DNA of 63,130 nt, filler included, from Reclinomonas americana ATCC 50394 (taxonomy: Eukaryota), in the NCBI GenBank assembly GCA_048213135.1. It is 5 parts of 3 records of this genome, joined end to end, with 100 filler letters (N's around TTAATTAATTAA, not from the genome) between each part and the next. Parts side by side here need not be neighbours in the genome. Positions count along the whole stretch, not along the records: positions 32,762 to 59,969 come from PS015265.1; 4 more parts are not named here. The stretch is one strand, 5' to 3'. Position 1 is the first letter of the stretch. Every line of letters starts with the position of its first letter. Under the pieces are notes generated by a model that had not been told where the DNA came from, did not search any database, and worked only from the letters and a program-made list of their open reading frames with translations. The position numbers and the translations under genes are program-made. Shown one piece after another: positions 48,201 to 56,800 of this stretch.

Positions 48201-49603
48201 TGCTGTTCAGCTAAGGTGTGACGATGCTCAGCATTGGCTCGCTGCAGCTGAGTGACAATGTCTTCGTGTTCTCGTCGCTGTCGATCCCATTCGTGCTGCT
48301 GTTGCTGTCGCTCCTCCTGCTTCTCGGCGTTGATATGCTGCAGCTCGGCATTGTCTCGTTGCAGCTGAGTGACAATGTCGTCGAACTCTCGTCGCTGTCG
48401 ATCCCATTCTCGCTGCTGTTGCTGTCGCTCCTGCTGCGATGTGGCGAGATCGCGCTGGAGCTGGGCGATGAGTGCGTCCTTGTCGGTGACGTCGTCGACC
48501 GCCTGCGCAGAGCAGAACAAGAGAGAGGGAGAGAGAGAGTGAGAGAGAGAGAGGAGGGAGAGAGGTGGGAGTCAGAGAACATGCACGATGAGACACAGAC
48601 ATGCGCAAGCGAGACGACACGGTCTCTCACCTGGCGTGATGGCGATGTATTATCTGCAAGACGAAAAGTAAGCGAAGCAAACAACGAGGAGAGTGTGAGA
48701 AAGGAGAAAAGCACACATCAACCATCTGTACAAGACGACACAAAGATCACACCTGCTGCTCGTGGTGGTGGTGGTGGTGGTGAAGAGGTAAGGGATATTT
48801 GTGGCTGCCGCTGTTGTGGACGTGCTGGCTCTGCGTGTTGTTGTGGGGTGAACACAAACAGAGAAAGATGAGCGTGTGCAACACGAAAATGAGATCTCAC
48901 CTGCTGGTGGCTGTGGTGGTGGAGGCGGAGAGGAAGGTTGTGGTTGTTGTTGGCGTGGTGGAGGTGCTCGTTGCTCCGTAGCGAGGCGGTCGAGCAACTC
49001 GGCAACTTGTTGCTTGCCATTATCGCGTGCGAACTGAGCCGCTGTCCTGCCATACTTGTCGACCATGGGAATGAGGTCGGGAAAGCGCGTGGCGAGGAGT
49101 CGCACGACGTCTTCGTGGCCATTCACAGCAGCGCAGTGCAGCGCAGTACACTGGTATGCTTTGGTGACCGCCCGCACCATCTCCGGCGGGCATCGTCGCT
49201 CATCGGCAAGCAACCGCTCCACCACTCGCAGATGCCCGCTGTCGGCAGCCCGCATCAGTGGCGTGTGGCCATTGTCGGTGACCATTTGTGCGAGTTCTGG
49301 ACCGACGCCACTCTTATCCCACAGATACTCCAACACAGAGAGATGGCCATAGCAAGCGGCATAATAAAATGCCGATCCACCGCCAAGCGTCTCCTCTCTC
49401 TTCAGCAGTGTCTGTGCGCCCTCACGCGCCACCAACTCGCGCAGTGCCTTCACATCGCCTTCCCACGCCATCGCATATGCTTTCAGCCTCCTCCGTTGTT
49501 GCCTGCCCAACGAGCAACAATTGTCAGAGAGAGTCAGCGAGGAGACGAGAAAGCCAGAAACAAACACACACACATACCTGTCACTGCCCTGTGCTGCACC
49601 CAT
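45298..49603 (-). CDS. Ankyrin repeat - Pro-rich - coiled coil - HEPN - protein kinase (TKL-like)
   Basis: Ankyrin repeats (GHTPLMRAA, TALHCAA); Gln-rich coiled coil; HEPN-like MDVSLLSTLLL and ENLRDVRHRVSH (47404-47421); kinase VAYK, FENE, LDHPHIV, HRDLKPQN, KVCDFG, YAAPE, DVYGLG, QCW. All exons can be joined in frame by GT-AG introns. Confidence 0.8.
45985..46445 (-). repeat. Three degenerate duplicates of the kinase HRD-exon 3' end within an intron
   Basis: VASAVV...RRVVHRDL-like copies at about 46440, 46240 and 46050 with substitutions, indels and altered donors. Confidence 0.8.
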
Positions 49604-49790
49604 CTCTGTCTGTCTGTCTGTCTGTCTGTGTGTGCGTGCTTTCGTGTGGCAACTCGCGATTCATGACACGCTCAGGACAACTCTCAGTCCGTCGTCACTG
49701 AGTGAGTGAGCGAGACACAGACGCACACTCGCGTAAGAGAGAGTACCTCTCTGTCTGCGCTCTCTCTATCTCTCTGCACAACAACGAAGA

Positions 49791-49853
49791 ATGGAGAGAT
49801 ACATCAAGAGCAAGATCCTTCTCGGCGAGGGAACTTATGGATATGTGTACAGG
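49791..49853 (+). pseudogene. Orphan CDK-like first exon (copy 1)
   Basis: MERYIKSKILLGEGTYGYVYR then GTACTG donor; resembles the CDK1/2 N-terminus; no downstream CDK exons found. Confidence 0.7.
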
Positions 49854-50185
49854 GTACTGTGTCACTCACACTCTCAAACACACACACTCACTCACGCACA
49901 TACACACACAGAGAGAGGGAGAGAGTGATTCAGAGACAACTCTCATGCATTCTGTGATCTCTCAATCAATCAGCGCAAGAGTCACTCTTTCTCTCTTTCT
50001 CTTTCTCTCACACACACACTCATTCCCTCACTGAATCCAACTCACTTGCTGACTTTCGCACATCTCCCATCTTTTTCGTCTCGCATTTCCACACCCCGTT
50101 CGTCTCTCACACTGATGATGCACTCGACATTCTCAATGCTGAGCTCTCACCCCCTCCCTCTCCTTTTTTGCAAGCTTGCTTTCAC

Positions 50186-53430: not shown

Positions 53431-53455
53431 CCTCTCTCTGCGCAACAACGAAGAA

Positions 53456-53518
53456 ATGGAGAGATACATCAAGAGCAAGATCCTTCTCGGAGAGGGAACT
53501 TATGGATATGTGTACAGG
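53456..53518 (+). pseudogene. Orphan CDK-like first exon (copy 2)
   Basis: Same MERYIKSKILLGEGTYGYVYR plus GT donor. Confidence 0.7.
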
Positions 53519-53805
53519 GTACTGTGTCACTCACACTCACACACATACACAGACAGAGAGAGAGAGAGAGATTCAGGGACAACTCGCATGCATTCCGTGA
53601 TCTATCAATCAATCAGTGCAAGAGTCACTCTCTCTCACTCTCACACACTCATTCCCTCACTGAATCCAACTCACTTACTGACTTTCGCACATCTCCCATC
53701 TTTTTCGTCTCGCATTTCCGCACCCACACTGATGATGATACACTCGACACTCTCAATGCTGAGCTCTCACCCCCTCCCTCTCCCTCTTTGCAAGCTTGCT
53801 TTCAC

Positions 53806-56800
53806 TTAGAGTTCCAGCGTAAAGTTGCCGCACGCCTCGCGCACCGCCCGCATCACCTCGAGCACCTCCTGTGCCGTCGGTCGATCACGTCGCAGACTCA
53901 TGCATCGCATGCCAATGGTAAACATGGCTTCCGCGATGCGCGGTGTCCACTCCACGCCATCCGCGCTGTCCACCAGCTCCATGACGCGCATCGAGTCCGG
54001 CGATTCGTCCCACTCCAGAGACCACTCGCCGACAGTCACCACGGGCTTGCCGGTGACCAACTGCACCAGCACCACCCCCATGCTGTACACATCGTGCTTG
54101 GGCAGTGGACGGCGGGCACGGAGGGCCAGCGGATCCAAGTAGTCGGGTGTGCCAGCGGCGGGAGTTGTCTGGTGCAGGTAAGAGATTGAAAGGAGAGATC
54201 TAGGAAGACGAGATAGGAGTGAAGCGCACCTTGCCACCGGCAATTGACCGAGCAATCCCAAAGTCCCCCAGGCACGGCTCGAAACGATGATCGAGGAGCA
54301 CATTGGCAGGCTTGATGTCGCGGTGCACAACTTCATTCTGCGAAGGAGTGAGGAAATGAGAGGCAAAGTACATGTATAAATATCACAAGGGAAAAAGAGG
54401 ACAGCACGTAGGAAGAAGCAGGGAGAAGCGGGAGACTGAGAACAAAAGATGTACAAAACTGCAGCATAGAGAAAGAGAGTGCGAAATAGAATGACGACTT
54501 GCATACAGATCAGAAGGGAACGGAAGAGACAGAACACAGCAGGAAACCGTAGGGGTCACGGAAGACTGAGATAGCAAGAGCGATAAAGAACTGCAATGTA
54601 GAGAAAGAGAGTGCGAAACAGAAGGCGAGACGACTGGTGAGAAACAAAGACACCAATCCACATCGAACACACACCTTGTGCAAGAACGCTACAGCCTCAG
54701 CCAGTCCGAGACCAATCTGCACTCGTTGTACGACAGAGAGTGGTGCACGACCGATACGAAGCAGCAGGAGGTCCTCCAAGTTGGGAACTCTGCGCGCGTT
54801 CACAGTTAAACAATGACTGATGAGAGCGACAAGAAGAGAGAGATGGAACACGCACTGCAAGGCCTTGTACACGAGACAGCGTGCCTTGTCGTCGCCCACC
54901 GAGTAGCCAACAAGAGGCACAATGTGGCGGTCACGCAGGCGTCCGAGAGTGGCCACCTTGTGAGAAAAGGAAGAAGAATGAGGAAAAAGAGAAGGGAATG
55001 AAAAGGAGAGAAGGACAGACAGACCTCACTCTCGAACGACTCCATCGTCCACGGTGCAACGGGATCGAGCACTTTGATGGCCACATGCATTTCGCGGAGG
55101 AGAGTGATGAACACGGCACCTTGGCCGCCCTCGCCCACTTTGAGGCGCGGTGAGAAGGAATCGGTGGCGTGCACGATCTCCGGCCACTCGAAGCGCTGCA
55201 CGGCAGTGTCGACTGTGGAATGAAGACGGAAGGGATAGATGGAGAACAAATGAATGGTTGGAGAAGCACGAGGACAACAAGAGAGATGCAAAGACCTTGG
55301 GCAAGGAGGAGCTCCTGTCGAAGCTGGGAGACAAGTCGGTCTTTCTCTTCCAGCTGCTGCTGCACGATGATCAGCTGAGCAGCAAACTCATCCTTGTCAC
55401 GCAATGCCACAGCCAGCTGGGTTTCCAGCTGAGCGTGAGCTTGCTGCCATTCTGCATTGGCTCGCTGCAGTTGCGCGACATGCTGCCGACTCTGGGCATC
55501 AGATTGCTGCAACTGTCCGTTCGCTTGCTGCAGTTGCGCAATGGTAGCGTTCCGTCGCTCCACCTCAACGCGCAGCTGTGCAACTTGTTGCTGATCTTTG
55601 GCATGCGCCTCACGCAACTCAGCGCTGCCTTGCTGCAGTTGGGTCACGATATCTTCGTGCTCTCGTCGCCGTCGATCCCATTCTCGCTGCTGCTGCTGTC
55701 GCTCCTGCCGTGCTGCGGCGAGATCGCGCTGGAGTTGGGCGATGAGCGAGTCCTTGTCGGTGGCGTCGTCAATCACCTGCGCAGATGCAGAGTGCAAACA
55801 TAATGAGCAACGCGAAAGCCTAAGCAAGATGACACAGTCTCCCACCTGGCGTGGCGGGACTGCGTGTTCTCGCAAACAAAGAAACACGCATGGAGGAGTG
55901 TGAGTGGCGAAGTACACACATCGACCATCTGCACAAGACGGCATTGAGATCTCACCTGCTGCTCGTGGTGGTGGTGGTGGTGGTAGTGGTGGTGAAGAGG
56001 GAGGGGAGATTTGTGGCTGTTGTTGTTGTGGGCGTGCTGGCTCTGCGTGTTTTTGCAGGGTGAACACAAGCAGAGAAACACACAATGAGGAGTGCGTGCA
56101 AGACGGAGAATGATATCTCACCTGCTGGTGGCTGTGGTGGAGGCGGAGAGGCAGGTTGTGGGGGTTGTTGGCGTGGTGGATGTGCTCGTTGCTCCGCAGA
56201 GAGGCGGTCGAGCAACTCGGCAACTTGTTGCTTCTTGTTGTCGCGTGCCAGCTGAGCCGCGGTCTTGCCATCCTTCCTGACCATGGGAATGAGGTCGGGA
56301 AAGCGCGTGGCGAGGAGTCGCACAATGTCTTCGCGGCCATTCGCGGCAGCGAAATGCAGTGCAGTCCACTGCGCTGCTTTGGTGGCCGCCCGCACCATCT
56401 CCGACGGACATCGTCGCTCATCGGCAAGCAACCACTCCACCACATGCAAATACCGCGAGGCAGCCGTCATCAGTGACGTCACGCCATCGTCGGTGACCAT
56501 TTGTGCGAGTTGTGGCCCGACGCCACTCTCCTCCCACAAATACTCCAACACAGAGAGATGGCCGCAGGCAGCGGCATAGTAAAATGCCGACCTGCCACCA
56601 TTCATCTCCTCTCTCTTCAGCAGTGTCTGTGCGCCCTCACGCGCCACCAACTCGCGCAGTGCCTTCACATCGCCACCCCACGCCATATCCCATGCTTCCT
56701 TCCTCCTCTGTTGTTGACTGCCCAACGAGCAACAATCGTCAGAGAGAGTTAGCGAGGAGAAGGGAAAGCCGGAAACCAACAAACACACACATACCTGTCA

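Follow-up and report, generated by a model that had tools for sequence, protein, structure and literature searches.

Apparent diversifying selection on the ankyrin binding face of tandem ankyrin-kinase genes in Reclinomonas americana

Introduction

The locus described here raises the question of why neighboring gene copies with a common ankyrin framework differ sharply at a defined set of residues. The window, by which we mean the whole 63,130-nucleotide stretch analyzed, is eukaryotic DNA of Reclinomonas americana ATCC 50394 in which parts from several contigs are joined. On its minus strand at about 46-60 kb, four or more paralogous genes (copies A to D) follow one another in tandem with a unit of about 3.6 kb; in the encoded proteins, five ankyrin repeats are followed by a linker rich in proline, then by a coiled coil, and finally by an IRAK/RLK-like kinase. 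An initial annotation of positions 48901-56717, which extend from the end of the ankyrin exon of copy A to just upstream of that of copy C, had likened the ankyrin domains to a natural library of designed ankyrin repeat proteins (DARPins) and had proposed diversifying selection on recognition. A conserved scaffold carrying a hypervariable face is a common design in innate recognition, as exemplified by the leucine-rich repeats (LRRs) of plants and animals and by the WD, tetratricopeptide (TPR), and ankyrin repeats of fungal NOD-like receptors (NLRs). For the array, we consider it probable (approximately 0.72) that positive selection has driven apart the ankyrin faces of tandem paralogues while framework and kinase were conserved.

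Results

The three complete ankyrin exons of copies A, B, and C were compared at the nucleotide level; in addition, a paralogue derived from an expressed sequence tag (EST), P0002, was included at the protein level only. All nine peptide strings quoted in the initial annotation were found on the minus strand within the ankyrin exons of A, B, and C. DARPins are randomized at repeat positions 2, 3, 5, 13, 14, and 33 (PMC1261162, section 8). A second library was randomized at positions 2, 3, 5, 10, 13, and 33, which are described as forming a continuous binding surface of β-turn and helix 1 (PMC4308713). In A, B, and C, variable residues occupied 20 of 26 DARPin positions as compared to 30 of 138 positions elsewhere (Fisher P = 1.2e-7, odds ratio 12). 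Inclusion of position 10 changed the ratio to 23/30 versus 27/134 (P = 7.7e-9), and for the DARPin positions with P0002 added (residues 1-131) it was 17/20 versus 30/111 (P = 1.4e-6). Sharp differences between copies at hairpin and helix-1 positions, as claimed, are thus concentrated there far beyond chance, and the published DARPin design bears out that these are the positions randomized in designed ankyrin proteins.

Position 5 was variable in 4/4 repeats, position 13 in 5/5, and position 14 in 4/5, and positions 1, 3, 9, and 10 varied in three of four repeats each. Variation was also seen at positions 15, 16, and 18; positions 4, 6, 8, 11, 12, 20, 23, and 24 were invariant in every repeat. 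At position 10 of repeat 4, the four copies carry F, S, L, and W (copy D is readable there). The binding face is therefore where variation is concentrated, but it extends past the six DARPin positions, since 1, 9, and 10 vary too. Likewise, the term DARPin-like library holds for the positional match; it is an overstatement for a family with five known members (A to D and P0002) and can serve as a metaphor only.

The hypervariable segments of repeats 1-4, comprising hairpin and helix 1, are located on the minus strand of copy B at 53032-52988, 52921-52877, 52804-52760, and 52702-52655 (52655..53032 overall), with residues 3-4 of the N-cap at 53107-53102; the translation was checked. The corresponding segments of copy A are found at 49390-49349, 49282-49238, 49165-49121, and 49063-49016 (49016..49390, minus strand), with N-cap residues 3-4 at 49465-49460 on the same strand. 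Those of copy C are found at 56605-56564, 56497-56453, 56383-56339, and 56281-56234 (56234..56605, minus strand), with N-cap residues 3-4 at 56680-56675, also on the minus strand.

The ankyrin exons matched the Pfam family Ank_2 beyond the cut-off in copies A (E = 3.5e-21), B (E = 6.9e-18), and C (E = 7.5e-18). An AlphaFold2 model of the domain with a predicted local distance difference test score (pLDDT) of 91.6 showed five helix pairs, an extra short helix at residues 97-100, and loops between the repeats that are longer than those of DARPins. The best Foldseek matches of this model were N3C DARPins, with template modeling (TM) scores of 0.73-0.87 at about 30% identity, and the top matches listed were all ankyrin proteins. 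Both the profile matches and the modeled fold of stacked helix-turn-helix-hairpin units are those expected of ankyrin repeats. The repeat register was set in two independent ways, once by aligning the domain to DARPin chains with HMMER and once from the helix positions in the AlphaFold2 model; face or burial of each variable residue was assigned by this register, not from the model coordinates. Repeats inside one copy are dissimilar in sequence and length, and repeat number is five in all complete copies.

Selection was first estimated by the Nei-Gojobori method for whole domains. The ankyrin domain gave a synonymous divergence (dS) of 0.16-0.20, a nonsynonymous divergence (dN) of 0.12-0.17, and a ratio of both (ω) of 0.6-1.0; the respective values were 0.15-0.21, 0.04-0.08, and 0.24-0.35 for the coiled coil and 0.40-0.50, 0.02-0.04, and 0.06-0.09 for the kinase, which is under strong purifying selection. 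Near-identity of coiled coils and kinases between copies had been asserted in general. At the protein level, it applies only to copies B, C, and D (85-91% identity for the coiled coil, 92-95% for the kinase); it fails for copy A, in which the coiled coil is rearranged and the 3' half is non-homologous, and it fails for the kinases at silent sites, where fourfold degenerate positions diverge by 0.26-0.33 as compared to 0.07-0.14 in the ankyrin exon.

When the ankyrin exon was split, pairwise Nei-Gojobori estimates of ω were 2.2-3.5 at DARPin positions and 0.35-0.6 outside. A purpose-written codon likelihood with a fixed partition was then applied, in which the positions were chosen a priori, branch lengths and κ were shared, and the ω values were separate. 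It yielded ω = 4.5 at DARPin positions and 0.57 elsewhere; setting ω = 1 at the DARPin positions cost 14 log-likelihood units and was rejected (likelihood ratio test (LRT) 28.0, P = 1.2e-7). A comparison of models M1a and M2a, which is blind to position, favored a positively selected class comprising 8.5% of codons (LRT 44.4, P = 2.3e-10). Fourteen codons had a posterior above 0.5, ten of them at DARPin positions, two at position 10, and two others: positions 2, 5, 13, and 14 of repeat 1; 5, 10, 13, and 14 of repeat 2; 3 of repeat 3; and 1, 3, 10, 14, and 15 of repeat 4. Hence, 12 of the 14 candidates lie at positions 2, 3, 5, 10, 13, and 14. The fixed-partition test, with its positions set beforehand, is the stronger result of the two.

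As two or three bases differ in many of the variable codons, we recounted the differences allowing at most one event per codon. The three pairs of copies gave ω values of 3.9, 2.7, and 2.4, for which the lower bounds obtained by bootstrap were 1.96, 1.22, and 1.14. Two or three base changes were found in 23 codons, 16 of which lie at positions 2, 3, 5, 10, 13, 14, and 33. Furthermore, the face had diverged more at nonsynonymous sites than had intron 1 next to it (P = 3e-4 and 7e-4); between B and C, 26/64 nonsynonymous face sites differed as compared to 11/78 sites of the intron (P = 3e-4). Differences at the face were rich in transversions (66/99 versus 42/102 elsewhere, P = 2e-4). In the three copies, ω at the binding face is thus above 1, and the blind M2a analysis finds the variable residues clustered and not spread evenly. 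The comparisons show that positive diversifying selection acts on the predicted concave face, and the proposal of the initial annotation is supported within the limits set by three nucleotide sequences and recombining copies.

Silent sites required separate attention. Between B and C, 46/162 fourfold sites differed in the kinase exons as compared to 60/607 positions of the introns between them (P = 1.5e-8), and 20/168 differed in the ankyrin, linker, and coiled-coil exons. The silent sites of the kinase exons (B 50186-51588, C 53806-55212, D 57419-58933) are about threefold more diverged than the intervening introns. Kinase differences come as runs of consecutive silent changes, each private to one copy; the ankyrin exon is free of such runs, and its silent differences are sparse. 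This pattern suggests that paralogues located outside the window were donors of patch conversion limited to exons. Because kinase dS is inflated by the copy-specific runs, it is a poor yardstick; as the silent differences of the ankyrin exon are sparse and no denser beside the variable codons, its silent sites interleaved with these codons, together with the intron at its flank, are the proper one. By this measure, the variable codons evolve faster than neutral.

The copies are mosaic, with identical tracts of about 100 nucleotides (in B and C, from late exon 8 through intron 8 into early exon 9). Divergence is patchy along the unit, and at silent sites the ankyrin and coiled-coil exons are two- to threefold less diverged than those of the kinase. 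The silent similarity of the ankyrin exons probably arose by recent duplication or gene conversion. Given this evidence of conversion, random-site tests are to be treated with care.

The gene model was read on copy B (50186..53113, minus strand), a complete gene with nine exons, GT-AG introns throughout, and an open coding sequence (CDS) of 2031 nucleotides encoding 676 amino acids. As read from the sequence, exons 1-5 are located at 53113-52540, 52460-52383, 52262-52249, 52163-51671, and 51588-51401 and exons 6-9 at 51331-51231, 51165-51051, 50714-50607, and 50545-50186. Ankyrin repeats, linker, coiled coil, and kinase account for the whole CDS. Copy C (53806..56686, minus strand) is likewise complete, with an open CDS for 673 amino acids and GT-AG introns only; its exons, aligned to copy B, lie at 56686-56122, 56042-55956, 55859-55846, 55776-55296, and 55212-55025 (exons 1-5) and at 54956-54856, 54789-54675, 54337-54230, and 54168-53806 (exons 6-9). 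In repeat 2 of copy C (56453-56497), an in-frame deletion of three nucleotides removes the conserved Gly at position 15. The His beside it is replaced by Tyr, and repeat 3 carries Arg for a conserved His; apart from these changes the gene is intact.

Copy D (57419..59969, minus strand) is truncated at its 5' end, as the artificial joint between contigs at 59970 cuts through its ankyrin exon; four is therefore a lower bound for the number of copies in the array. The contig stops within copy D, as expected of an assembler failing in a tandem repeat. Of the ankyrin exon, the last 44 codons remain, which encode the end of the last repeat and some of the proline-rich linker; the remainder of this linker is followed by coiled coil and kinase, with every splice site of the B model conserved. 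Intron 7 of copy D (57985-58369) contains a tandem repeat of 129 nucleotides in three copies, because of which it measures 462 nucleotides as compared to 336-337 in B and C.

In copy A, the ankyrin exon and the proline-rich exon 2 were mapped to 49471-48901 and 48830-48753 (48753..49471, minus strand). The coiled-coil exon (approximately 48502-48053, minus strand) is rearranged, with an internal duplication of 117 nucleotides at 48226-48437, and the 3' half lacks homology to B-D. Downstream of copy A lies a fragment of a different protein kinase (46001..46851, minus strand; Pkinase 48.9 bits at 46444-46851), which overlaps a 193-nucleotide tandem repeat of 3.3 copies (46001-46633) and is probably degenerate. 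The 3' region of copy A (46001-48520) may represent either a domain-shuffled member or the decaying end of the array.

The proline-rich linker is encoded by the two small exons 2 and 3, with a part of it in exon 1. Exon 4 of copy B (51671..52163, minus strand) encodes 164 amino acids without proline, 70% of which are Q, E, R, K, A, or L. Spectral power at a period of 3.5 exceeded that of shuffled sequences in copy B (P = 0.001), and none of 2000 shuffles reached the values of C and D. Heptad periodicity and a long proline-free stretch, as predicted for a coiled coil, were thus present in all three copies. Exons 5-9 encode a kinase; translations of B, C, and D contain the motifs GEGGQG, VAIK, HRDIKPAN, DFG, and GTPDYLDP, by which the kinase is apparently active. 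Exon 8 matched Pkinase with 36.2 bits (cut-off 31.7); for exon 9, the scores were 32.4 bits in C, 31.4 in B, just under this cut-off, and 29.0 in D. The best matches of the C-lobe exon among solved structures in the Protein Data Bank (PDB) were a lectin receptor-like kinase (RLK; 8.4e-07), BIK1 (5e-06), and IRAK4 (7e-06), and matches to SYMRK and BRI1 were also obtained; RLK, BIK1, and IRAK4 (8e-07 to 1e-05) ranked ahead of Aurora A (5e-03). The IRAK/RLK placement is provisional and denotes the similarity of this single exon. Pfam profiles detected no NTPase family (NACHT, NB-ARC) on the exons of the gene or on open reading frames (ORFs).

The fifth paralogue, P0002, has the same framework and different face residues, and its derivation from an EST indicates that the family is expressed. 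Relative to residues 104-109 of copy B, its repeat-3 hairpin is longer by four residues; hairpin length thus varies in the family besides residue identity. P0002 departs from the other copies after residue 131, probably as a result of a frameshift in the EST. A search of a collection of 5.8 billion proteins with the ankyrin exon returned P0002 as the one close relative, the rest being generic ankyrin proteins, and among 1.84 billion representatives, 37,765 matches to generic ankyrin proteins were obtained, with P0002 again as the only close one. The kinase C-lobe exon found no relatives among longer proteins, and scans of metagenomes by protein pattern and by exact DNA found no further members.

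Discussion

The interpretation that positive selection drove apart the ankyrin faces of these paralogues has to be weighed against a number of observations that speak against it. The selection test rests on three nucleotide sequences only. Recombination inflates random-site tests, and the copies compared here are mosaic; moreover, the ω of 128 for the positive class of M2a is unbounded and meaningless as a number. If kinase dS (0.40-0.50) is taken as the reference, face dN (0.45-0.58) gives a ratio of only about 1.0-1.3, which for B versus C is not significant (P = 0.19). The framework ω of 0.57 is high for a constrained scaffold, and the conserved glycine of repeat 2 is lost in copy C. Ligand binding, oligomerization, and kinase activity are putative. 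Finally, face positions are in general the least constrained ones of ankyrin repeats (PMC1261162).

It is improbable that the copies are instead old, with an ankyrin exon homogenized by conversion in which the variable codons were retained by selection maintaining diversity. The mosaic units, the identical tracts, the patchy divergence, and the low silent divergence of ankyrin and coiled-coil exons agree with such concerted evolution, but a conversion tract, being tens to hundreds of bases long, cannot leave out individual codons that are spaced one to eight codons apart. Blocked conversion also predicts diverged silent sites in the neighborhood of the variable codons; these codons are, however, isolated islands, and silent variation was no denser near them (6/44 codons) than far from them (10/94). 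In any case, concerted evolution still needs selection on the binding face and is therefore a variant of positive selection on this face rather than its denial.

Relaxed constraint, under which the face positions merely drift neutrally (ω of about 1) over a conserved framework, is a still poorer candidate. Across more than 15,000 natural ankyrin repeats, these very positions are the most variable (PMC1261162, section 8), and the face dN is only about 1.3-fold above the dS of the kinase exons (P = 0.19). This dS is the yardstick inflated by copy-specific silent runs. Neutral drift was rejected whether the reference was the silent sites interleaved within the ankyrin exon or the adjacent intron, and again with one event counted per codon (bootstrap lower bounds 1.14-1.96), and the abundance of transversions at face codons likewise argues against it.

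We regard it as very unlikely that the copies are mis-assembled or decaying derivatives of one gene. The window is stitched, the contig of the array ends inside copy D, the 3' half of copy A is rearranged, and copy C lacks a conserved glycine, all of which could be taken as signs of artefact or decay. Yet B and C have open CDSs of 2.0 kb in which all eight introns are GT-AG, the kinase ω is 0.06-0.09, the differences are structured by codon and repeat register, and P0002, an independent EST-derived protein, shows the same pattern.

Least likely is a programmed or templated diversification of specific codons, similar to that of diversity-generating retroelements or immunoglobulins: codon-sized islands with two or three base changes and the existence of donor copies, as indicated by kinase patch conversion from unseen donors, would fit, but Pfam searches found no reverse transcriptase in 150 ORFs of the flanks (1-46339 and 60918-63130), the changes involve all base pairs and not adenine alone, they are fixed between germline paralogues, and the variable codons are free of accompanying silent changes. 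Scans of the array also gave no reverse transcriptase, and base differences at the variable codons span all six base pairs and are not restricted to a single base; the locus was therefore rejected as the target of a diversity-generating retroelement.

With positive selection on the ankyrin face as the preferred explanation, the following mode of action can be envisaged. The gene product would be a cytosolic protein with an N-terminal five-repeat ankyrin domain of the size and fold of an N3C DARPin, joined through the proline-rich linker to a coiled coil of about 160 residues and a kinase. Its diversified face would comprise hairpin positions 1-5 and helix-1 positions 9, 10, 13, and 14, with the fold-determining framework retained. 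The face of each paralogue may bind a different protein ligand, and dimers or oligomers may be held together by the coiled coil. Upon binding of the ligand, the kinase would be recruited, activated, or brought to its substrate. In sum, the array would encode a set of one-polypeptide sensor-kinases of diversified specificity.

The ligands may be foreign, as in immunity, conspecific, as in allorecognition, or endogenous substrates. An immune or non-self role is rather unlikely. Equally tentative, and in our opinion as unlikely, is the idea of a previously undescribed class of intracellular receptors for non-self or pathogens in a microbial eukaryote, composed of a hypervariable, DARPin-like ankyrin sensor, an oligomerizing coiled coil, and an IRAK/Pelle-type kinase, with a repertoire generated by tandem duplication, gene conversion, and positive selection.

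In innate immunity, variable recognition domains lie upstream of IRAK, Pelle, and RLK kinases or form one protein with them. The best solved matches of the C-lobe lie among the IRAK/Pelle and plant RLK-RLCK kinases; the proteins described here differ from them by the absence of a death domain, a transmembrane segment, and an extracellular LRR or lectin domain, and by a cytosolic ankyrin sensor attached via a coiled coil. With N3C DARPins and the ANK-N5C library they share fold and size, and their variable positions coincide with the randomized ones. In contrast to DARPins, they are natural, with non-consensus repeats, longer loops, a fused kinase, five members, and additional variable positions.

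Ankyrin repeats and a protein kinase are combined in one polypeptide in ILK, TNNI3K, and RIPK4/ANKK1, the ankyrin repeats of ILK being N-terminal. The same combination is reported for the expanded NEK-ankyrin proteins of Giardia (PMC3218828). Unlike the family studied here, ILK, TNNI3K, RIPK4/ANKK1, and the Giardia proteins are not known to have a proline-rich linker and a long coiled coil between both domains. To our knowledge, no report describes any of these ankyrin-kinase proteins as forming a tandem family in which the ankyrin face is hypervariable.

The ankyrin repeats of fungal NLRs, receptors that also occur with TPR and WD repeats, are the closest published case. These ankyrin repeats carry positively selected and polymorphic sites on the concave surface of a highly conserved framework and show signs of concerted evolution, and a role in non-self recognition was proposed (Dyrka et al. 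2014, PMC4986451). Diversifying selection on the concave face, that is inner helices and hairpin, of a conserved scaffold is common to both systems. In fungi, however, variation occurs between near-identical repeats of one protein and between alleles, whereas here it occurs between tandem genes; fungal repeat number is polymorphic, but here it is fixed at five with dissimilar repeats; and the fungal signaling part is a NACHT or NB-ARC NTPase in place of a coiled coil and an IRAK/RLK-like kinase. An assignment to the fungal type of highly conserved arrays (>85% inter-repeat identity, number polymorphism) was rejected because the repeats are dissimilar and all complete copies have five. Membership in the NLR/STAND class was rejected because the gene carries no NTPase domain. 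A further parallel is provided by the LRR and TPR receptor candidates reported from brown algae (PMC3341825). In the open-access literature searched, we found no report of positive selection on the concave face of an ankyrin-kinase family, nor did we find the sensor-kinase architecture in print there.

If the preferred explanation is correct, an ankyrin sensor wired to an IRAK/RLK-type kinase would be added to the known designs, and this in a microbial eukaryote. The link between IRAK/RLK kinases and fast-evolving recognition domains would reach beyond plants and animals. In the less likely case of the new receptor class considered above, recognition and an immune-type kinase would reside in one cytosolic polypeptide, whereas animals and plants split them across proteins or across the membrane. 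Furthermore, the family would provide natural examples of ankyrin positions randomized by evolution, with positions 1, 9, and 10 beyond the six of DARPins. Small and confidently folded in silico, the ankyrin domains are usable as baits, and the claim is testable.

Other features of the window

The joints between the parts, at 17058-17157, 32662-32761, 59970-60069, and 61669-61768, consist of N44-TTAATTAATTAA-N44 linkers and are artificial, so that genes on either side of a joint need not be neighbors. An ORF of 648 amino acids at 37104-39047 (plus strand) carries TPRs of the kinesin-light-chain type (TPR_12, TPR_10) in its last 200 residues, which, among the PDB matches listed, also match TPR-like repeat proteins of Podospora. 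Its first 440 residues match no family, and no NTPase was detected in it; its architecture is reminiscent of NTPase-TPR receptors. On a contig other than that of the array, an ORF at 681-1373 (plus strand) matches the N-terminal GTPase domain of guanylate-binding proteins (E = 1.6e-09). Two housekeeping genes on the plus strand are split by introns and gaps, namely a succinate dehydrogenase/fumarate reductase flavoprotein at 25285-31183 and, on the same contig as the array, a fumarylacetoacetase at 42161-43228.

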